A stretch of DNA of 64,000 nucleotides, from the NCBI GenBank assembly GCA_965225945.1, contig CBDDBZ010000031.1:1-64000 (forward strand). Direction: 5' to 3'. The DNA is from Alphaproteobacteria bacterium. GTDB lineage: Bacteria > Pseudomonadota > Alphaproteobacteria > GCA-2731375. The position numbers and the translations under genes were made by a program. Below are positions 3,538 to 32,230 of this stretch, piece after piece. How positions within the stretch are numbered: the first letter of the stretch is position 1; every line of letters begins with the position of its first letter. The notes beneath the pieces were generated by a model. That model searched no databases, had not been told where the DNA came from, and saw only the letters and a program-made list of their open reading frames with translations.

Positions 3538-4449
3538 TCATGCGGCGGGCCTGAGTGACATCGCGGTGTGCCACGCCTGACGAGCTTGAGCGGGGCTCAG
3601 GTAGCCGTTCTTCTCCACGATCCACTGGGCATTGTACTGTTCGACGAACCCGCGGACGGCGTTCCGCAGCTCCGCGATGTTGCGGTAGATGCGGCCATGG
3701 ATGATCTGTTCCTTGAGCGTGCGATTGAACCTCTCGGCGACGCCGTTGGTCTGGGGCTGTTCGACGAAGGCGTAGGACGGCTGGATGCCCCAGAACTTGA
3801 TCTGGTTGGTGAAGTGGTCCGACAGATACTGGGAGCCGTGATCCATCCGCAAGGCCAGCCCCCGCGCCGCACCGGCGGAGGTCGAGGCATACAGCCTCGC
3901 AAGCCCCATGGAGATTGGCTGAAGGGCGGCGAAGCGGTCGCCTCGCTTGCACACATGCCAGCCGACGCACTCGGCGTTCCAATGCTCGATGGCGGTGAAT
4001 ATCCAGCCCCAGCCGTCGTCCACCGTGAACACCCGAACGCCGTCCGTGCCCCACATGAGGTTGGGGGCATGGGTGATGATCTCACCGACATGGGGATTTC
4101 CGCCACGGCGGCGGCAGCGATGGGGCGAGAGCAGGTTGTTCTCGCGCATCACCCGGAGCACCCGCTTGCGGGAAACACGGATGCCACGACAGACCCGAAG
4201 CCGAGCCCAGACCTTGCGGTGTCCCTCGCCCTCCCAGGGGGATGCCTCCAGGTCGGCCTCGATGGCCACCAGCAGAGCCTCGTCCGAGATCGAGGGCTTC
4301 GGTCCCCGGCGCTTTGCTGGTGGGCGCTCAGCGGTGGCCTGCTGCCGGGATTTCATGGCGTAGAACGAGGAACGGGCAAAACCCCAGGCCGCACAGACCC
4401 GCTGGAGGCCGTAGGCCAAACCCGTGCCGGGAGAGGTGGCGGCACTCAT
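3538..4449 (-). CDS. IS3-like transposase OrfB (rve/DDE)
   Basis: DDE motifs: WGTD...DHGSQY...NGVAERFNRTLKE. Confidence 0.9.
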   Translation of the reverse strand: MSAATSPGTGLAYGLQRVCAAWGFARSSFYAMKSRQQATAERPPAKRRGPKPSISDEALLVAIEADLEASPWEGEGHRKVWARLRVCRGIRVSRKRVLRVMRENNLLSPHRCRRRGGNPHVGEIITHAPNLMWGTDGVRVFTVDDGWGWIFTAIEHWNAECVGWHVCKRGDRFAALQPISMGLARLYASTSAGAARGLALRMDHGSQYLSDHFTNQIKFWGIQPSYAFVEQPQTNGVAERFNRTLKEQIIHGRIYRNIAELRNAVRGFVEQYNAQWIVEKNGYLSPAQARQAWHTAMSLRPAA

Positions 4450-4856
4450 CGCCGCGACCTCCGCCGCCCCAAAGGGCCGGACGTCTCCGTCTTGGCCTCC
4501 AGCAGTTCCACCTGCATGATCAACTCCCCGATCCGCTTCATGGCGATGTCCAGTTCCGCCTTTACCGGATCGCCCTTGCGTTCCTTGAGCGAGGCATCGA
4601 TCCCGGCGATCGCCTTCTCACGCCACTGCTCGAGCCGGAAAATCTCCACGCCCAACTGCCGCGACAAAAGTTCCACCGGCTCGCCACGCAAAAGCCGCAG
4701 GGCAACCTCACGCTTGCGCGTCACCGTCCACCGCTGGCCAAGTCCCAGCGGGCCTGCCGGCGAAACCTGGCCCGGGGAAAACGTGGACGAGCCAAGCTCG
4801 CCCTCGTTTACCACAGGCCCATCAACAGCAACTTTGTTCTCAAAATTGTCGGTCAT
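4446..4856 (-). CDS. IS3-like OrfA (HTH)
   Basis: RWTVTRKREVALRLLRGE...LSRQLGV. Overlaps orfB by ATGA. Confidence 0.8.
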   Translation of the reverse strand: MTDNFENKVAVDGPVVNEGELGSSTFSPGQVSPAGPLGLGQRWTVTRKREVALRLLRGEPVELLSRQLGVEIFRLEQWREKAIAGIDASLKERKGDPVKAELDIAMKRIGELIMQVELLEAKTETSGPLGRRRSRR

Positions 4857-4922
4857 GTTCCGGTCCTCCTTGGACACTTCGATTAAGCCAATTCTGTGTC
4901 CAAGGAAATCGGGTCCGACTCA

Positions 4923-5378
4923 GAACCACCTGTTGATGGCACGAGGCGCAGTTGAACAGGCGGGCGGTGTTCTTCATCGCGCAGCCGATGAGAACGGGGT
5001 GGACCCACGCCCAAACCCGCACGATACTGCGCATATGGGTCGTGCCTTGCATGGCTCGGGGGGTGCGGTGCCGGTCGTTGCCAGCAAGCAAACGGGGCCG
5101 GCGCCGCATCGTTCTCAGCGGCCCGAGTGTACTCCCGCGGCTCCCCTTGTCAGGTCCGCGGAACCGCCGCCGCCAGCCAGCCAAAACAGGAATCGAGACG
5201 CCCGCCCGCGGTGGATAAGCAGCCCGCCGCCGCCAGACTCTTGGCGGTCGCCGCGGCGGGCTACTTACCCACCGCTGCGCCGAGCCAACTCCCGCCTGCA
5301 AACCACGCAGCTACAGCGCCACGATGCCCGATGTCGCTGAAATCACCATCTAAGCGCGGTTTTTCATCGCCACCGACA
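4923..5378 (-). mobile_element. IS21-like element end remnant, inserted in the IS91 transposase and cut off by the IS3-like element
   Basis: The minus strand starts TGTCGGTGGCGATGAAAAA exactly where IS91 homology stops. It ends in a truncated Cys-rich ORF start, MKNTARLFNCASCHQQVV. Confidence 0.45.
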
Positions 5379-5629
5379 GCCAGCCATTCGCGCGCGACCT
5401 GGCCTTGGCATTTGGGACAATGGCGGTTGCGACAGGAATTGTAGGCGATGTGGTTCTGCCCGCAGTCCTCGCAGGCCGCGACATGACCGCCGAGCGCGGC
5501 GGTGCGGCAACACTCGATCGCCGACATGACCTTCAGTTGGCCGAGGCTCAGACGACCGGCCCGGGCCCGACGGAAGCCGGGCCCGTGGTCGCGGAAGATG
5601 TCCTGGACCTCGAGCGCGGGACGCGGCAC
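5379..5629 (-). pseudogene. IS91-family (Y2) transposase N-terminal Zn-binding fragment
   Basis: CRTAALGGH..C..C....AYNSCRNRHCPKCQ motif. Truncated after EWLA. Confidence 0.85.
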
Positions 5630-5642
5630 CGAGGCCGCCGGC

Positions 5643-6542
5643 TCACTTCGGCGGCTTGGTCTTGGGCGTCGGCGGCTCGAGCAGGTCCAGTGGGCTCTTG
5701 GCGCGCCGCAAGGTGGTGCTGGCGACCTGGGTGTAGTGAGCCGTGGTCTCCAGCTTCTTGTGCCCCAGTAGAACCTGGATCACGCGGATGTCGACGCCCT
5801 GTTCGAGGAGATGGGTGGCGAAGCAGTGGCGCAGCGTGTGAAGCGAGATCCGCTTCTCGATCCCCGCCCCCGCCTTGGCGCCATCGAGGGCGCGACGGAG
5901 CTGGCGGGTGGTCAACGGGTTGACCGGGTTCTGGCCTGGAAACAGCCAACCGCCGGGCAGCATCACGCCGCGGGCGCGGCCAAGCAACCACCAGACCCTG
6001 AGCTGCTCGACGGCGCGATCCGAGAGCATGGCGTAGCGATCTCGGCGGCCCTTACCTTGCTCGATGCGAAGCGTCTTGCGGTTGCTGTCGATGTCCGGGA
6101 CCTTGAGATGGACCACCTCCGAAGCGCGCAGGCCGGCGCCATAGGCCAGCGAAAAGGCCGCCTTGTATTTGGGACCGGGGGCGGCATCGAGAAGCCGCGC
6201 CATTTCCTCGACGCTCAGGATCACCGGCAGCTTGCGCGGCATTGCCACCGTCGTCATGCCGATCTCGGCGTCGCCTCGGCCGAGCGTGACGCCGAAGAAG
6301 AACCGCAATGCCGAGACCGCCGCGTTCATCGTCGTCGCCGATGCGCCTGCTTTGCGCATATGCACTTGATAGCGCCTGAGATCCTCCGCCTCCGCCCGAT
6401 CCGGAGAGCGTGCGAGAAAGTCGGAAAAGCCGGCCACCGCACTGATGTAGCCGCGCTGCGTGTTGGCACTGAAGCCGCGAAGCACCATGTCGTCGATCAT
6501 GCGCTGGCGCAGCGGGCTGATGGTCTTGTCACTATCGGTCAT
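5643..6542 (-). CDS. Tyrosine recombinase/integrase associated with an IS91-like element
   Basis: Intact catalytic set: GLRASE, GKG, HTLRH, LLGH, TAHYT. SAM-like N-terminus LRQRMIDDM..RG. Confidence 0.9.
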   Translation of the reverse strand: MTDSDKTISPLRQRMIDDMVLRGFSANTQRGYISAVAGFSDFLARSPDRAEAEDLRRYQVHMRKAGASATTMNAAVSALRFFFGVTLGRGDAEIGMTTVAMPRKLPVILSVEEMARLLDAAPGPKYKAAFSLAYGAGLRASEVVHLKVPDIDSNRKTLRIEQGKGRRDRYAMLSDRAVEQLRVWWLLGRARGVMLPGGWLFPGQNPVNPLTTRQLRRALDGAKAGAGIEKRISLHTLRHCFATHLLEQGVDIRVIQVLLGHKKLETTAHYTQVASTTLRRAKSPLDLLEPPTPKTKPPK

Positions 6543-23242: not shown

Positions 23243-25663
23243 GCTTGTGTAGCGTGAGGTCTGGAAATTTGGCTTCGCCCCGCGCCGGGGTATACCCCGG
23301 CGCGGGGCGATCCGTCATTTTGGTTATCCATGAAAGCGTCCAAACAAACATGGAGAACCAGTATGCGGAAAGACCAGGATAGCGCTGTCGAGGCTTTGGT
23401 GGAACAATTGATCGAAGGCGGTAGCGAGAACATGGCGACGGTCTTCGCCGGCCTTTTCAATCTCGCCATGCGGATCGAGCGGGAGAGGTTCTTGGGCGCC
23501 GGCCACTATGAGCGCACGCCGGAGCGGCGGGGATACGCCAACGGCACCAGACCCAAGAAGATCGACACCCCGGCCGGTACGGTGAGGCTCGAGGTTCCCA
23601 AGACCGCCGGTCATGAGGCGCCTTTTTACCCCCAAGCCCTGGAGCGCGGACGGCGCTCCTGCCGCGCTGTCATGCTGGCCGTGGCGGAGATGTATATCAA
23701 GGCTCAATTCGTGAATTGTATGCATTAGTGATAGAGTGCCTGCAACGTCAGGAGGTTGGGTTATGGACGGCAAGGGTTTCCAGGTGTGGCTTTCGGCGGC
23801 GCGCGGGCTGACGCGCGCGCAGCGGCGCGAGGCGCTCGCGGTGCTGTCGGGCCGGAGCGAGGGCGAGGCATCGAAGGCCGCGATCGAGCTTGGTGTGGAC
23901 GAGGCCCGGCGCTGTCCGCACTGCGCGAGCGAAGGGGCGGTTTCGCGCGGTATGGCGCGGGGTCTGCGGCGCTACCAGTGCAAGGGCTGCGGCAGGACCT
24001 TCAATCCAGGCCTCGGCGCCGCGCGCAAGGCCGTCCTCGGCCGCGACATCTGGCGCGCTGAGCGGTACGCCGCTGTCGGGCTTGCACCACAAGGAACGCT
24101 GGCTGTCGTTCGGGGCGTCGCTGGCGAAGGGGGAGACGGTGAAGGCCTCGGCGGCGCGCTGCGACGTGGCGGTGAGCACGGCGTTCCGCTGGCGTCACCG
24201 GTTTCTGGCGGCGGCGCGGAGCGATTCGGAGGTGCTCAAGGGGATCGTGGAAGCGGACGAGACCTACGTCCTGGAGAGCCGGAAGGGCGCGCGCGGGCTG
24301 GGGCGCAAGGCACGGCGGCGGGGCGGCAAGGCGAAGAAGCGCGGCCTCTCGCGCGAGCAGGTACCGGTTCTCATGGCGGCGGACCGGAGCGGAACGACGG
24401 TCAGCGCGGTGCTGCCCAGGGTCGATGCGGCGGCGCTCACGGCTGCCCTCGACCCGGTGGTCGCGAAGGACGCCCTGCTGGTCTCCGACGGCGGCGCGAG
24501 CTACCCACCGTGCGCCGCCGCGCTCGGGGTGAGCCACGAAGCACTCAACCGCTCGATGGGGGAACGGGTTCGGGGCGATCTGCATGTGCAGACGGTGAAC
24601 AGCCGCCACAGCCGGTTGAAGGACTTCCTGCGTCCCCGCCGCGGCATCGCCACCCGCTATCTGGACAACTACCTGAGCTGGTCCACCTCGTCGGCCTCGC
24701 CCCCGGCGCCAATGACCGAGCCTGCCTCGCCGCCGCCGTAACAAGGTGACGCATACAATTCACGAATTGAGCCTATATCAAAGGCGTCTCCACCCGTGAC
24801 GCCGAGGCGGTGATGCGCGAGTTCGGCCTGGAGAGCCTGTCGTCGAGCCAGGTCAGCCGCGCCGCCAAGCTCTTGGATGGGGAGCTGGATGCCTGGCGCA
24901 ACCGGCCGCTGGGCGAGATCCGCTACCTGCTCCTCGACGCGCGCTATGAGAAAGTCCGAGAGGGTGGCGTGGTGCGCGACGCCGCCGTGCTCTCGGTGAT
25001 CGGCATCGGCCCCGACCAGCGCCGCCGGGTGCTCGGTGTTTCCTGTGCGCTCTCCGAGGCCGAAGTGCACTGGCGCGCCTTCCTGGAGACCCTGGTTGCC
25101 GGTGGCATGCGCGGTGTCGCCTATATCGTTTCCGATGATCATCCAGGCCTCGGCGCCGCGCGCAAGGCCGTCCTCGGCGGCGCCGTCTGGCAGCGCTGTC
25201 AGTACCATCTGGCTCAAAACGCCATCCATCACGCCCCCAACCTCGCCATCCGAAAGGCCATCGGCAAGGAGCTGCGCCGGGTCTGGAACGCCGCCGACGG
25301 CAAGGCCGCCGAGGCCGAGCTGGGCCATCTGGTGGCGGCCTACCGCGACAGCGCCCCCAAGCTCGCCGATTGGCTGGAGACGGCGATCCCCGAGGGCCTC
25401 GCCGTCTTCGCCCTGCCCGAGCGCCACCAAAAGCGCATGCGAACCTCGAACCCCATGGAGCGATCCATCCAGCAGGAGATCAAGCGCCGCACCGTAAAGG
25501 TCAGGGTCTTTCCCAACGAGGCCTCGCTCGAACGTCTGGTCACCGCCATCCTCGTCGAAATCGACGAGAAATGGGAAACCACCGAAAAACCCTACATCAC
25601 TTGGAAAGCAGAGGATGACTGATCAACGGCGTTCCGAATTTCCACACATCAGGTTGCTCAATC
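23243..25663 (+). mobile_element. IS256-family copy B, interrupted by IS1595
   Basis: 8-bp TSD CGAAGCCA (23235-23242, 25664-25671). Matches copy A. Confidence 0.92.
23701..24773 (+). mobile_element. IS1595-family type A, copy 3, frameshifted (49-bp insertion, 1-bp deletion)
   Basis: TSD TATATCAA. 1073 bp versus 1025 bp for the other copies. Confidence 0.9.
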
Positions 25664-26167
25664 CGAAGCCAGGTCATTGCCTTCTTCAAGAAGCTGAGGC
25701 GAAGCCAGGTCATTGCCTTCTTCAAGAAACTGCCGCTGTGTCTGGTCGGCATCGAGGCCTGCGCGACGTCGCACCATTGGGCTCGCGAGCTGCAGGCGCT
25801 CGGCCATGAGGTGCGGATCATGCCGGCCCATTACGTGAAGGCCTACGTGAAGCGGAACAAGAACGATGCGGCCGACGCGGCAGCGATCTGCGAGGCGGTG
25901 GCGGGCGGTGGGGCGGCCAAGTATGCGCTTTGTGGCGGTGAAAAGCCCGGAGCAGCAAAGCTTGCTAATGCTGCACCGCAGCCGCTCGCTGCTGGTTTGC
26001 CAGCGCACCATGCTGGTGAACGCGATCCGTGCCCATTTGGCGGAGTTCGGCATTGTCGCACCGCTTGCCGGGCAGGCGTGAAGGCGCCGCTGGCGGTGAT
26101 CGCCGATCCAGACGAGGCCCGTCTCCCAGGCCTGGCCCGGAGCTGTCTGGAAAGTCTGGTCGCCGCC

Positions 26168-26509
26168 ACGGTGGCGATCGTGGTGCTGACGCTGATCGGC
26201 GATCCGGTCATGTTCATCGTCGGCGTCTCGGTGCTGGGCTTCGCCCTCTTCGCCGTGCGCCCGGTGCTGCAGGGCTGGATGATGGACCTGACGCCGAGCG
26301 CTCTCGGCGGTTCGGCGACGAGCTTGATGTTCGGCGTGCAGGCGCTGTTTTCGGTCATGGCGCCGGCGATCGGCGGCCTGATCGCCGACAGCCATGGACT
26401 CCTGGTGGTGTTCTATTGCCTGGCCGGCTCCATGTGCATCGCCAACCTGCTCGGCTATCTGCTGCCGAAAGACGCGCCGACCCGCGCCCGAGCCGGCGCC
26501 GGGGATTGA
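26168..26509 (+). pseudogene. MFS transporter C-terminal fragment
   Basis: Hydrophobic helices, with MDLTP....GSA.S.MFG and APAIGGLIADSHG. Fused to the IS110 remnant. Confidence 0.7.
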
Positions 26510-26738
26510 GGCCGCCCGATGGGTGACTCCCCTGTCCCCACCCCCATCGAGGGACGATCCCTGGAGGTGGATCCGTTCTCGGGGAGGCGGACCACGACCT
26601 TCATGCACGGCTGCGTCCGGCACCGACATGACTGGCGACGTGGCCGAAGACGACCCTCGACGAATGCACTGGTCGTGAACGGTGTTTGTCGTATACCTTC
26701 GGAATTAGAGCATGATCCATGTGGCCGGAGACTAGACG

Positions 26739-28367
26739 TTGCCTAAGGAAAATCTGCTGGTCTATGTGGTCGACAAGGTAGGCGAGACCTTCGAGGGACG
26801 TATCATCGTCGCCCGCAATCAGCGAATATCCGATTTTCTGAACGCGGAGAACGCCTTCGTCCCCATCGAATTGCATGACGGGACGATCCATCTGCTCGGT
26901 CGGCGCGCGATCAGCCGCGTGGCGCCACGAGAGGAGGAGGAAGGTGGCGCGCCGAGCCAAGGCGCCTACTACCTCCTAGGAATATCCGACAAGCTGACCA
27001 AGCGGAAGTCCGCCGTCTCGGTGCTCACCGGGGACGGCGAGGTCTTCGAGGGACATTTCTTCGTCACCGGCGATCAGCGACTATCCGATCTGCTGAACAG
27101 GGAAAGCGTCTTCGTCCCCTTCGAATTCCTTGACGGAAAAATTCAATTGATCCATCGCAGTACGATCAGCCGCGTGGTACCACGAGAGGAGGAGGAAGGT
27201 GGCGCGCCGAGCCAAGGCGCCTACTACCTCCTAGGAGTATCCAACAAGCTGACCAAGCGGAAGCCCGCCGTCTCGGTGGTCACCAAGGACGGCCAAATCT
27301 TCGAGGGACGTTTCTTCGTCACCGGCGATCAGCGAATATCCGATTTGCTGAACGGAAGGAACGCCTTCGTCCCCTTCGAAATTCATGGCGCTACAATCCA
27401 TCTGCTCGCTCGCAGCGCGATCGGCCACGTGGTGCCGCGAGAGGACGACAGTGACGCGTCGGCCCACGTTTACCAAGCACAAGCGCCTTCCAAGCGGACC
27501 AAGCGGAAGTCCCCCGTCTCGCTAGTCACCGAGGACGGCGAATTTTTCGAGGGACATGTCTTCGTCGCCAGCGATCAGCGAACCTCTGATGTGCTGAACG
27601 ATGGCAGCCTTTTCGTCCCCTTCGAATTCCTCGACGGAAAAATTCATCTGATCCATCGCAGTACGATCAGCCGCGTGGTACCACGAGAGGAGGAAGGTGG
27701 CGCGTCGGAAGGCATTTACTTCGGACAAGCACCTTTTCGGCAGTCGAAGCGGAAGTCCCCCATCTTGGTGGTCGCCAAGGACGACGAAGTCTTCGAGGGA
27801 CATTTCTTCGTCGGCGGAATCCAGCGAATTTCCGATCTGCTGAACGCGGAGAGCGAGTTTGTTCCCTTCGAACTCCTCGACGGCACGATCCATCTGCTCG
27901 CTCGCAGCGCGATCCGCCGCGTGGTGCCGCGAGAGGACGACGGCGGCGTGTCGGAAGGCTCCTACCTCACACAAGCACCTTTCAAGCAGTCGATGCGGAG
28001 GTTCCCCGCCGCGGTGATCACCAAGGACGACGAGGTCTTCGAGGGACACTTCTTCGTCCCCGGGCGTCAGCGATTATCTCAGGTTCTGAAAGTAGAGAAC
28101 GCCTTCGTGCCCTTCGAACTTCTCGACGGTACGATCCAGCTGCTCAATCGGAGCACGATCAACCGTGTGGTCCCGCGAGAGGACGAGGACGAGGACGAAC
28201 CTTCGGCCCAATTCGTTCGCGATGTCTTCAGTAGATCGGCGTGGGTACCAGACTTGGTGATGGAAGGCCCCGCCGAAGCCGAGCAGGGCGTTGATCTTCG
28301 CGAATTTGAGAACGGCGTGGCGGCGCTTGCAAGCGCCGATTACGAAACGGCGCGCGGTGTCTTTTAG
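26739..28367 (+). CDS. Protein of six tandem ~82-86-aa Sm/Hfq-like (DUF6812-like) domains
   Basis: Repeats start near 26739, 26997, 27252, 27498, 27744 and 27990. Consensus KRKSxVxVxTxDGExFEGHFFV..QRxSDLLN...FVPFE..DG.I.L..RS.I.RVVPRE. Confidence 0.75.
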   Translation: MPKENLLVYVVDKVGETFEGRIIVARNQRISDFLNAENAFVPIELHDGTIHLLGRRAISRVAPREEEEGGAPSQGAYYLLGISDKLTKRKSAVSVLTGDGEVFEGHFFVTGDQRLSDLLNRESVFVPFEFLDGKIQLIHRSTISRVVPREEEEGGAPSQGAYYLLGVSNKLTKRKPAVSVVTKDGQIFEGRFFVTGDQRISDLLNGRNAFVPFEIHGATIHLLARSAIGHVVPREDDSDASAHVYQAQAPSKRTKRKSPVSLVTEDGEFFEGHVFVASDQRTSDVLNDGSLFVPFEFLDGKIHLIHRSTISRVVPREEEGGASEGIYFGQAPFRQSKRKSPILVVAKDDEVFEGHFFVGGIQRISDLLNAESEFVPFELLDGTIHLLARSAIRRVVPREDDGGVSEGSYLTQAPFKQSMRRFPAAVITKDDEVFEGHFFVPGRQRLSQVLKVENAFVPFELLDGTIQLLNRSTINRVVPREDEDEDEPSAQFVRDVFSRSAWVPDLVMEGPAEAEQGVDLREFENGVAALASADYETARGVF

Positions 28368-28370
28368 CCC

Positions 28371-28712
28371 TTGGCGGAACACGGTCTCGCCAGGGCGCAA
28401 GTCCAGCTCGCTCTCATTTACGAAAATGGCCACGGCGTGCCGCGAGATTACGATGAAGCCCGCAACTGGTATCTAAAGGCCGCCGAACAGGGCGATTTCC
28501 AGGGTCAATTGGCAGTCGGGCGCATCTATTCCAAGGGCCTTGGGGTTCCGCAGGACCTGGTCTGGGCATCCATGTGGTTCATCATCGCGGCGGCGAAGGG
28601 AGTCGAAGATGCCGCCGTAAACCGCAATGAAGTTGAGGATTTGATGACCCGGGCCGACGTATCCAAGGCGCAACGCCTCGCCCGCAAGTGGATGGCCAAG
28701 CACGGGAAGTAG
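28371..28712 (+). CDS. Sel1-like repeat module, in frame with the upstream ORF beyond a TAG
   Basis: LAEHG.A.AQ..L..IY..G.GVPRD..EA..WY.KAAEQG. Confidence 0.85.
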   Translation: MAEHGLARAQVQLALIYENGHGVPRDYDEARNWYLKAAEQGDFQGQLAVGRIYSKGLGVPQDLVWASMWFIIAAAKGVEDAAVNRNEVEDLMTRADVSKAQRLARKWMAKHGK

Positions 28713-29139
28713 GCGACCGTTTTATTGAGGGCAAAAACCGCAAAGACGTCGCCCTCGCGCGCGCGTTTTTGGGCGTCGCAACCCCCGACGCGTCATGCCC
28801 TCACGATCTCCTTCCCTGACGTTGATGCTGCTCGCCAGCGTGAGCACCTAGATGCTGGACGTCCGGTGCGACCGCTGGGAGGATCGGAGTCCTTCTGGGA
28901 GACGCGGGAAGGGCTACTGGACGTCGCCTTGCCACATAACCGCGTGCGGCCGACCGAGGCCGCTTCCCGGCTCTTGAAATCGTTCCCACCGCACTACGAG
29001 CCCGGCGCCCTCGGCGCGCTGGTGGTGCGGGAGGCGGCAGAGTGAACGACGACCAGCTTTCCCCACGGCCGGTTGGGAACATCCCCAACGGACCTGGGCC
29101 CGATGGGTTCGCGATCGAAATTGAGGAATCGCCGCTCGA

Positions 29140-29656: not shown

Positions 29657-29732
<76 letters not shown>

Positions 29733-30272: not shown

Positions 30273-31613
30273 ATGACCTCGTTCGTCTCCCGTCCCGTGT
30301 CCAGAATCGCCGGCGATGTCGAGGTGCCGGGCGACAAGTCGATCTCCCATCGCGCTCTGATGTTGGCGGCGCTGGCGGTCGGACGCAGCACCATCGCCGG
30401 CCTGCTCGAGGGCGACGACGTGCTGGCCACGGCCTCGGCGCTCCGCGCGCTCGGCGCCGAGATCGCGCGCGAGGGTGATGCCTGGCGCATCGACGGTGTC
30501 GGCGTCGGTGGTCTGGTCGAACCCGACGACATCCTCGATCTCGGCAACTCCGGGACCGGCGCGCGCCTCTTGCTCGGGCTTCTGGCGAGCCATCCGCTGA
30601 CCGCCGTCGTGACCGGCGATGCCTCGCTGCGCGGCCGCCCCATGGCCCGCATCACCGAGCCGCTATCGCGCCTCGGCGCCCGCTTCCACGGGCGCGCCGG
30701 CGCTCGCCTGCCGATGGCGGTGATCGGCGCCGACCCGGCGATGGCGATCGAGCATAGCCCCCGGGTGGCCTCGGCCCAGGTGAAGTCGGCGGTCCTGCTC
30801 GCCGGCCTGAACGCAGCGGGCGAAACCGTGGTTCACGAGCCCGTGGCGACGCGGGACCACAGCGAACACCTCCTGCGCCACTTCGGCGCCGAGGTCCGGG
30901 TCGAGGCCGGGGCGAGGGGCGGGCGGACGATCCGGCTCGCCGGCCAACCGGAACTGGCGCCCCGCGACGTGCACGTCCCGGGGGATCCGTCTTCCGCCGC
31001 ATTCCCGCTGGTCGCCACCTTGATCGCCGAGTCCGGCGAGGTCCGGTTCCGCGATGTCGGCCTCAACCCGCTTCGCGGCGGCTTGTTGGAGACGCTCTTG
31101 GAGATGGGCGCCGACATCGGGATCGAAAACCGGCGGCTGCGACAGTTCGAGCCGATCGGCGATCTCGTCGTCCGCTCCGGCCGGCTCCGGGGGGTGAGGG
31201 TGCCGGAGGCGCGGGTGGCCTCGATGATCGACGAATATCCGATCCTCGCCGTGGCCGCGGCCTTCGCCGAGGGCCGAACCGTGATGCGGGGCGCGGCCGA
31301 GCTCCGGGTCAAGGAGAGCGACCGGATCCGCGCCATGGCGCGCGGTCTGGCCGCGCTCGGCGTCGAGGTGGAGGAGCTGGAGGACGGCCTGATCGTCACC
31401 GGCGCCGCCGGCCCCCCGCCGCCCCTCGCCGACGGGGATGTCGTGCTGGAGACCGATCACGACCATCGTATCGCCATGTCGTTTCTGGTTTTCGGCTGCG
31501 CCGCCCGAGGCGCCGTGACGATCGACGATGCTCGGCCGATCGACACCAGCTTTCCCGGTTTCACAGCCGTGATGAACGCTCTCGGCGCCGACATGGCCCC
31601 GGCGGCGCCGTGA
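30273..31613 (+). CDS. aroA: 3-phosphoshikimate 1-carboxyvinyltransferase
   Basis: [34 protein letters not shown]. Confidence 0.97.
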
Positions 31614-32230
31614 TCATCGCCGTCGACGGACCGGTGGCGGCAGGCAAGGGCACGCTGGCGCGACGGCTCGCGGCGCATTGCGGCCTGGCCTATCTCGACA
31701 CCGGTTCGCTCTATCGCGCCGTGGCGCTGGCGCTCCTCGACCAGGGACTCTCGCCCGACGACGCCGAGGCGGGCGTCGCCGCCGCCGGGCGGCTGAGCCC
31801 CGAGCGGCTCGAGGATCCGAGGCTTCGCGAAGAGTGGGTCGGCGAGGCGGCGAGCCGGGTTGCCGCGTTGGCGCCGGTCCGCGCGGCCTTGCTGGCCTTT
31901 CAGCGGGCATTCGCCGCCCGGCCGCCGGGCGCCGTGCTCGATGGCCGCGATATCGGCACCGTGGTCTGCCCCGAGGCCGAGGTGAAGCTCTTCGTCACCG
32001 CCAGCATCGAGGCCCGCGCCGGGCGCCGTCACGCGGAACTCCGGGCTCGCGGGGCGGACGTCTCGCTCGCCGAGGTGCGCGCCGACCTCGAGCGTCGCGA
32101 TGCCCGCGACCGCGAACGGCGGATCTCGCCGCTTCGCCCCGCCGTCGATGCCCGCTTGCTCGAAACGTCGAATTTGGATATAGAAGCCAGCTTCCAGGCC
32201 GCTCGTGCGATCATCGAGGGGACGCGGTGA
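31610..32230 (+). CDS. cmk: Cytidylate kinase
   Basis: [29 protein letters not shown]. Confidence 0.95.

Follow-up and report, generated by a model that had tools for sequence, protein, structure and literature searches.

Six tandem copies of DUF6812 (PF20660), an uncharacterised Pfam domain, are encoded by one open reading frame of the DNA analysed here, which comprises positions 1 to 64,000 of contig CBDDBZ010000031.1 from an alphaproteobacterium and is called the window throughout. The frame occupies 26739..28367 of the forward strand and has 542 codons from a TTG start. Our best explanation is that each domain is a small barrel of the Sm/Hfq type, that six such domains would close into a ring, here within a single polypeptide, and that the window carries a damaged copy of the gene for this ring protein. 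Taken as a whole, we consider this explanation about as probable as its contrary. The sequence itself establishes the repeats, their family, the lesions of the gene and its relaxed selection; fold and ring are predictions of models only, and membrane topology and function are what we infer.

Six DUF6812 repeats in one frame

A preliminary description of this DNA had reported six tandem repeats of about 82-86 amino acids (aa) with acidic linkers from position 26739 on. This is borne out by three types of evidence. Tandem Repeats Finder gave a period of 246 nucleotides (nt) with 5.7 copies, 73% matches and a score of 1196, next to a second row with period 492 and 2.8 copies. An FEG motif that can serve as anchor is found six times, starting at residues 18, 103, 188, 270, 352 and 434, thus at spacings of 85, 85, 82, 82 and 82. 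Finally, Pfam assigns the protein to DUF6812 in six stretches (E 2.8e-30, 104.5 bits against a cut-off of 27.1), and the family that the description had named was therefore the right one; the strings it quoted from repeat 4 are present in the translation as well. One repeat taken singly scores 24.4 bits, slightly below the same cut-off, and a scan of the window repeats against NCBIfam gave no relevant match.

The 64-aa cores of the six repeats are 52-78% identical to that of repeat 4, and 20 of the 64 columns are invariant. Linkers of 18-21 aa, with acidic runs at their start (EEEGG, DDSDA, EEGGA, DDGGV), separate the repeats. A basic KRK leader is kept in five of the six; it is absent from repeat 1 but present in the other five and in intact relatives. 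Where Hfq has its YKHAI motif, the window repeats read (H/A/N/G)R(S/R)(T/A)I.

The period-492 row suggested an origin of the array as (AB)x3. We do not claim this, since repeats 2 and 4 are the only exceptional pair, with 77% aa identity, and all other pairs lie at 50-69%. Linkers 1 and 2 (26934-26996 and 27189-27251) are near-identical in the window (EEEGGAPSQGAYYLLG...) and different in two further copies of the gene (C22 and G002, described below), which points to recent gene conversion between adjacent repeat units of the window copy. Behind repeat 6, a GAGGAC microsatellite of 3.3 units (28179-28198) encodes an acidic EDEDED tail; it differs in length by 6 nt in the paralogue of the same genome and in contigs of two RNA libraries. 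Long, repetitive frames on the minus strand over the repeats (26601-26960, 27231-27482, 27522-28049 and 28074-28433) look like shadow frames of a GC-rich repeat gene and not like genes.

Fold of the domain

Repeat 4 and its linkers were modelled with AlphaFold2 (AF2) from an 87-row alignment of relatives. The model has a mean predicted local distance difference test (pLDDT) score of 88.4 and consists of five strands, the second and third of which are separated by a short helix. Strand 1 has no helix in front of it, and residues 1-15 are coil with a pLDDT of about 70. The QRxSDLLN segment sits within a 12-residue insert between beta2 and beta3. Compared with the PDB by Foldseek, this model gave, among the 31 matches listed, 18 to Hfq, 11 to lipoproteins of the YgdR/DUF903 type and 2 others. 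VIA-align against 48,161 representatives reached a best Z of 6.1, with Hfq, Sm or LSm in the titles of 20 of 50 rows. Profiles point the same way: all 17 PDB sequences matched by the DUF6812 family profile at E up to 10 are Hfq, and hhalign of DUF6812 against 16 Hfq sequences from related genomes gave a probability of 69.9% (E 4.1e-5, 55 aligned columns). The sole gap of that alignment is 12 residues long and falls exactly at the conserved QRxSDxLN segment, while the KRK leader comes to lie opposite the RKxK segment of Hfq and K/R-S-x-I opposite K-H-A-I. Below the Pfam thresholds, SM-ATX appeared in one and Hfq_1 in one of 150 relatives. The ESM Atlas returned just DUF6812 or unnamed clusters.

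Each of these results is weak when considered alone. No Foldseek match against the PDB was found at E 0.001 or better (best 6.2e-3). VIA-align gave no Z of 8 or more, and a Z below 8 may, according to the tool, mean just a common arrangement. The profile matches to PDB Hfq are weak (E 0.11-1.4), a Pfam scan of the window protein down to E 1 gave no match to Hfq (PF17209), and the N-terminal helix is absent from the model. However, results that are singly non-significant agree with each other, and because of this concordance we accept that the DUF6812 unit is probably a five-stranded Sm/Hfq-like barrel with an insert. The earlier proposal of a Sm-like fold with an extra QRxSDLLN insert is thereby supported by AF2, Foldseek, VIA-align, profile search and hhalign in agreement; in the structural check that it had called for, Hfq, Sm, LSm and YgdR dominate the matches, none of them significant. 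We do not assign the protein to the Hfq family itself, because a Pfam Hfq match, the N-terminal helix and the YKHAI motif are all missing.

Relatives and domain architecture

When 1.84 billion representatives were searched exhaustively with the profile, 277 proteins were found at E <=0.001, 27 at 1e-10 and two at 1e-30. Domains were counted with a profile of our own in 154 proteins among the matches listed (150 of 277 representative). One domain was found in 119 proteins, consistent with the earlier remark that DUF6812 is usually single-copy, two domains in 28, three in two (P0005 and P0006) and six in four (P0001-P0004, including two N-truncated calls counted as 5); the single protein without a domain (P0023) is spurious. 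None of the 154 has four, five or seven. P0023, a 3041-aa protein with eight stretches in the first search, was dropped: it is repetitive and adhesin-like, matched profile positions 10-41 alone and showed no domain with our profile. Two word-based searches of 5.8 billion clusters found no further multi-repeat protein; one of the two, with residues 1-260 of P0006, gave five matches, all already known. In a sample of 401 genomes of the same class, 51 have a DUF6812 domain.

Pfam matches of 150 relatives comprise 19 DnaJ, 6 Sel1 and one receiver domain, and none of them is an RNA-related fusion domain. Such partners suggest a module for assembly or recognition in the cytoplasm, and less so an RNA chaperone of the classical kind. 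The gene neighbourhood gives no functional lead: around 29 loci from the same class, any one Pfam family recurs in 2 of the 55 adjacent frames at most.

About one in eight relatives (the 19 of 150) thus combines DUF6812 with a C-terminal DnaJ J domain in proteins of about 150-190 aa (P0033, P0036, P0051 and others; loci L028, L030-L033, L035, L038, L039, L041, L044, L045, L049 and L050). In two genomes of one genus (G257 and G383), such genes are found as adjacent pairs or triplets (L049 and L050). P0007 (283 aa) has two DUF6812 domains behind the receiver domain of a response regulator, which suggests that the module can serve as an output or assembly domain in signalling.

The relatives with Sel1 repeats follow a common plan: an N-terminus MYYA...KRK, the DUF6812 domains, a low-complexity linker, a hydrophobic segment and the Sel1 repeats. 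The number of DUF6812 domains is one (P0010, P0016, P0024), three (P0006) or six. The hydrophobic 19-mer between both parts has a Kyte-Doolittle (KD) value of 2.08-2.93 in P0002, P0006, P0010 and P0024 and of 1.44 in P0016. K and R are more frequent before this segment than after it in four of five Sel1-bearing relatives, P0024 being level with 2 and 2. Because of this bias, the positive-inside rule would place the DUF6812 part of intact relatives in the cytoplasm and the Sel1 part in the periplasm. Intact relatives consist, in this order, of one, three or six DUF6812 domains, a disordered linker, one membrane helix and the Sel1 repeats.

From domain to predicted ring

For residues 1-490 of the window protein, the best of five AF2 models (7-row alignment) has a predicted template modelling (pTM) score of 0.71 and a pLDDT of 72.0, with stretches below pLDDT 50 confined to the linkers and ends. 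A pTM of 0.71 is unusual for independent domains in a chain of 490 residues of which about 90 are disordered. For the two-domain relative P0008, a complex of three copies was predicted from a 28-row alignment and the partner copy was scored. The median score was 0.88 against 0.02 for the best control, with a partner pLDDT of at least 86 and at least 89% of contacts common to the runs. In the calibration of the mark applied to such scores, 20 of 30 solved pairs and 1 of 23 single chains attained it; this calibration is based on two copies and holds only roughly here.

In this trimer, the scored copy contacts both other copies, one per domain. Residues 18, 44-48, 56-60 and 62-63 of the first domain are involved, as well as residues 92, 108-110, 113-114, 134-135 and 137-142 of the second. 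The contacts between 56-60 and 137-142 are antiparallel, with residues 57-60 pairing with 141-137, and by alignment to the repeat model the paired segments are beta4 and beta5. The beta4-beta5' pairing between neighbours that the preliminary description had proposed to look for is hence predicted, in a relative of the window protein. Furthermore, R108, N114 and F46 of P0008 lie at the predicted interface and represent three of the five near-invariant columns of the family. Because these columns fall there, the model offers an explanation for the conserved insert, which would form part of the domain-domain interface.

The repeat counts of the family fit to this arrangement. They are not freely varying: one, two, three and six are exactly the divisors of six. 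This pattern is suggestive only, as the three- and six-repeat proteins represent one lineage each and the pattern is to that extent anecdotal.

Further points limit the evidence for the ring. Four of the five chain models have a pLDDT of 50-58, and ring closure in the six-repeat model is read from pTM alone, with a 7-row alignment. The trimer was modelled on a relative and not on the window protein, its high score may reflect likeness to solved Hfq rings, and it covers the partner contacts alone and not those of copies 1 and 2 with each other. Foldseek with the six-repeat model gave a query-normalised template modelling (TM) score of 0.15 or less and scattered propeller, Tudor and KOW-repeat matches, which is uninformative on the domain arrangement. 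The covalent pseudo-hexameric ring that had been proposed for the window protein gained predictive support from the best chain model and from the P0008 trimer. On all the evidence together, we consider the closed single-chain ring evenly balanced between yes and no.

If the ring exists, the domains would join head to tail through pairing of beta4 with beta5 of the adjacent domain. The helix of the conserved insert, with its QRxSDxLN motif between beta2 and beta3 of each barrel, would pack on the FxPFE segment of the neighbour. Six domains would close the ring, so that the six-repeat chain would be a single-chain pseudo-hexamer, two-domain proteins would form trimers and three-domain proteins dimers. 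In the intact proteins, the number of domains per chain would then set the number of membrane helices and Sel1 domains per ring to six, two or one. Such a ring may be a platform for assembly or ligand binding, possibly of a polyanion such as RNA, because the KRK patch is kept where Hfq has its basic rim patch. The patch, present in five of six repeats and aligned with the basic segment of Hfq, may bind polyanions.

The window copy is damaged

The copy of the gene in the window is a rearranged and damaged paralogue in which the native start, the membrane anchor and the connection to the Sel1 part have been lost (Table 1). A second copy lies on contig C22 of the same genome (G000), where a fragment of the DUF4096 transposase of an IS5-type insertion sequence (IS) is fused in frame to repeat 1. 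In a genome of the same genus (G002), the orthologue adjoins a whole IS5-type transposase gene and begins with the codon of repeat 1 at which the other copies begin as well. Each repeat has its counterpart in the alignment of the three copies, and therefore the six-repeat array is older than their divergence; the native leader is present in none of them.

In the window, the native N-terminus MYYA...KRK is absent and the start lies within an IS-end remnant. This remnant matches a string on C22 (at about 3737-3757 of locus L009) that opens a fragment encoding the N-terminus of the DUF4096 transposase, and it is probably an IS5-type terminal repeat. It holds an in-frame TAG (26733-26735), a GGAG 8 nt before the TTG, and the TTG start itself. 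Further downstream, blastn aligns 26745-28278 with 4342-5875 of the C22 locus (91.5%) and 28280-28600, in the Sel1 part, with 6114-6434 (88.5%). Thus 238 nt of C22 are replaced by 1 nt in the window, a net loss of 237 nt that keeps the frame. The 79 deleted codons include the linker and the single membrane helix. The highest KD value of any 19-mer is 1.33 in the window read-through product (none reaches 2) against 2.78 in C22.

Behind the deletion, a TAG at 28365 separates the repeats from Sel1 repeats in the same reading frame (listed open reading frame (ORF) 28371..28712, 113 aa); relative to G002 it is a CAG>TAG change. The coupling of the ring module to Sel1 repeats that the preliminary description had assumed is broken in this copy by the stop, and the membrane helix that lies between both parts in relatives is deleted. 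If made at all, the window product would be a soluble six-domain protein. We rejected a reading of TAG as an amino acid: the Sel1 frame also ends with TAG (28710-28712), near the ends of the relatives, and relatives have CAG or CGG at 28365. A database entry of 657 aa (P0001) equals the window frame with TAG read as Q and the repeats joined to Sel1; its source is either an allele with CAG or a gene caller whose code treats TAG as a sense codon. Annotations of the window gene should mark it as interrupted and rearranged, and not read it through as one 657-aa protein in the manner of P0001.

Table 1. Position of the repeat gene, its parts and its lesions within the window.
Feature	Position	Strand	Evidence and remarks
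Duplicated 3' fragment of a major facilitator superfamily (MFS) gene and spacer behind it	26161..26703	+	99.8% identity over 543 nt to L009 3148-3690 (contig C22, own genome)
IS5-type terminal-repeat remnant (probable)	26727..26747		String of about 21 nt, 2 differences; opens IS5 fragment upstream of the C22 paralogue
Six tandem DUF6812 domains and 60-aa tail, TAG end	26739..28367	+	ORF, repeat and Pfam analyses
Repeat 1 core	26742..26933	+	52% identical to repeat 4; begins PKENLLVYVV, without KRK leader
Repeat 2 core	26997..27188	+	78% identical to repeat 4
Repeat 3 core	27252..27443	+	59% identical to repeat 4
Repeat 4 core	27498..27689	+	Used for the AF2 model, pLDDT 88.4
Repeat 5 core	27744..27935	+	64% identical to repeat 4
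Repeat 6 core	27990..28181	+	56% identical to repeat 4
Junction of 237-nt in-frame deletion (79 codons) against the paralogue	28278..28280	+	blastn blocks; 79-column gap in the protein alignment
In-frame TAG in first Sel1-type helix pair	28365..28367	+	C22 has CGG and G002 CAG at this codon; frame intact on both sides
Sel1 part, severed from the repeats	28368..28712	+	PF08238, E 8.3e-20, 70.9 bits against a cut-off of 30.7, 2 stretches

The C22 paralogue is adjoined by a whole MFS transporter gene (409 aa), and the window locus therefore resembles an incomplete duplicate bounded by IS sequences. Upstream lies a cluster of IS genes (23890-25622) with an IS1595/ISXO2-like transposase (23890..24741, PF12762) and an N-truncated transposase of the Mutator/IS256 type (24810..25622, profile positions 127-377 of 379). 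The frame 25811-26509 joins an N-terminal stretch that is IS110-like by eye to a C-terminal MFS part (PF07690). Downstream, the window continues with housekeeping genes: tRNA-Ala (GGC) at 29657-29732 (-), aroA for 5-enolpyruvylshikimate-3-phosphate (EPSP) synthase at 30273-31613 (+) and cmk for cytidylate kinase at 31610-32230 (+).

Selection and expression

Selection on the three copies is strongly relaxed. Nei-Gojobori ratios of nonsynonymous to synonymous substitution rates (dN/dS) between the window, C22 and G002 copies are 0.71, 0.74 and 0.85 for the repeat region; by part they amount to 0.51-0.83 for the cores, 0.86-1.01 for the linkers and 0.69-0.94 for the Sel1 part. The G002 copy has a CGA>TGA change at a nearly invariant R of repeat 5. 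Against a dead gene, on the other hand, speaks the number of stops: none is seen between window and C22, where a neutral simulation expects 2.9 (P about 0.05), and one in the pairs with G002, where 4.8-5.1 are expected (P about 0.04). In addition, about 1.5 kb of aligned repeats show no frameshifts, and all indels are in frame.

Half or more of the sampled words were found in 11 public runs. In two of them, which belong to two studies (X1 and X3), contigs extend over all 30 bins, with lower-depth variant contigs that fit the paralogue, and they show neither repeat-number variants nor joints. Over 28336-28800 they differ by one letter, which may or may not lie in the TAG. A 30-nt stretch that is shared with the paralogue accounts for a contig break at 28364/28336. 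Contigs of two RNA libraries lie over the repeats (X17 at 27808-28231; X19 at 27396-27536 and 28044-28278), again against a dead gene. Their 3' contigs have the 6-nt GAGGAC insertion and a C>G at 28209, as in C22. These contigs are a weak hint that one or both copies are transcribed, while DNA carry-over is possible in such libraries; 23 of 30 bins are without contigs in each of both runs, which is no evidence of silence. Promoter-like sites were not found (0, with 0.4 expected by chance), an uninformative result.

The own genome also has two hfq matches of 110.8 bits each with identical translated cores, at C22:101932-102123 (-) and C36:414159-414350 (+) (L067 and L077), one of them about 5.4 kb downstream of the repeat-gene paralogue on C22. 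This duplicate could stem from a duplicated region or a strain mixture; the contamination estimate of the genome is 5.58%.

Alternative explanations

Instead of a ring, the six domains might be beads on a string, folding independently and acting as a multivalent cytoplasmic adaptor in which each barrel has its own ligand or partner. The low confidence of four of the five chain models fits to this, as do the linkers, which are predicted to be disordered. Moreover, the structure matches include YgdR/DUF903 lipoproteins, RimP and the C-terminal domains of biotin ligases, none of which is known to us to form rings. However, such a string would not usually be expected to give the pTM observed for a chain of this length, and it leaves the clear separation of the two-domain trimer from its control, the use of both partner faces and the position of the most conserved residues within the predicted interface without a reason. 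We therefore regard it as rather unlikely. An even less probable alternative accepts the ring and reads it as a true RNA chaperone of the Hfq type, which would bind small RNAs and mRNAs and be tethered to the membrane in intact forms. The exclusive match of the family profile to Hfq within the PDB, the opposition of KRK to RKxK and of K/R-S-x-I to K-H-A-I in hhalign and the basic leader of five repeats argue in this direction. Yet the organism already possesses canonical hfq, the most conserved motif of the family is an insert that Hfq lacks, and the histidine of YKHAI is missing together with the N-terminal helix. None of the fusion partners (J domains, Sel1, receiver domain) is related to RNA, and a conserved neighbour with such a relation was not found among the 55 adjacent frames. 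We consider this improbable.

A different doubt concerns the gene itself. All six-repeat copies in the genus could be dead or dying pseudogenes produced by IS activity, with no product, and the number six would then have no present function. All three copies start at the same codon of repeat 1 beside IS5 sequence and without the MYYA leader, the window copy has its TAG stop and membrane-helix deletion, the G002 copy its TGA at the near-invariant R, and dN/dS is high in repeats and Sel1 part alike; the failure to find a promoter-like site points the same way. In contrast, the stops are fewer than neutral drift would leave, frameshifts are missing, the cores are somewhat more constrained than the linkers, and a GGAG stands in front of the TTG start. 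The RNA-library contigs from two studies add a weak hint, DNA carry-over being possible. An ancestral six-repeat gene would still need explaining. We thus hold it unlikely that the array is a relic only, although with less conviction than in the case of the string. A six-domain ring protein of the Sm type, preserved here as a damaged copy, remains our preferred explanation.

Comparison with known systems

Hfq (PF17209), the homohexameric Sm-like RNA chaperone, shares with DUF6812 the predicted five-stranded bent barrel and gives the best sequence and profile matches. The likeness extends to basic residues, as a patch in front of beta1 and as K/R in the loop from beta4 to beta5, to the predicted beta4-beta5' pairing of neighbours and to the predicted six domains per ring. 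DUF6812 differs by the missing Pfam Hfq match and N-terminal helix of the model and by its conserved helical insert of 12 residues between beta2 and beta3. Furthermore, six non-identical domains lie in one chain, and relatives are fused to a membrane helix and Sel1, or to J domains. The eukaryotic Sm/LSm hetero-heptamers and the rings of archaeal SmAP are likewise rings of diverged Sm-type barrels in fixed order (Z 4.5-5.4). However, their subunits are separate gene products, mostly in rings of seven, whereas the diverged subunits of the window protein are covalently joined and predicted to be six in number.

YgdR and YgdI (DUF903) gave the best Foldseek matches (3fif, E 6.2e-3, target-normalised TM 0.72). 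In contrast to DUF6812, they are secreted lipoproteins of about 55 aa without tandem arrays, and no common sequence motif links both; DUF6812 has no signal peptide and is predicted on the cytoplasmic side. Sliding clamps provide an analogy only, as six-domain rings that are divided variously among chains: PCNA consists of two domains in each of three chains, the bacterial beta clamp of three domains in each of two. DUF6812 proteins with one, two, three or six domains resemble this series, but the fold is unrelated and their rings are predicted only. Within DUF6812, finally, the window protein is a member with six domains, while most relatives have one. A full-text literature search for the name DUF6812 found no paper, and searches for tandem Hfq, Sm or LSm domains found no case among the papers listed.

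Significance

How function can depend on the number of subunits is classically illustrated by Sm and Hfq rings, and all known ones are, to our knowledge, built from separate chains. We tentatively suggest that DUF6812 is an unrecognised branch related to Hfq that always builds a ring of six domains, as six chains of one, three of two, two of three or one of six, and that no Sm-type ring made naturally of a single chain would have been known before the six-repeat protein; in this general form the idea is more doubtful than plausible. It is worth testing at the level of the family. Six diverged Sm-like barrels, together with relatives of one, two and three barrels, would give a series from the homo-oligomer to a single asymmetric chain. 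They would also give a fold and a testable assembly to a family which is as yet uncharacterised and whose fusion partners are J domains, a receiver domain and Sel1 repeats with a membrane anchor. If true, such a chain would have six faces that diverge independently, and its intact form would be tethered to the inner membrane, with one helix leading to a periplasmic Sel1 domain. The ring could then hold RNA or another polyanion at the membrane or, in the J-domain fusions, recruit DnaK.

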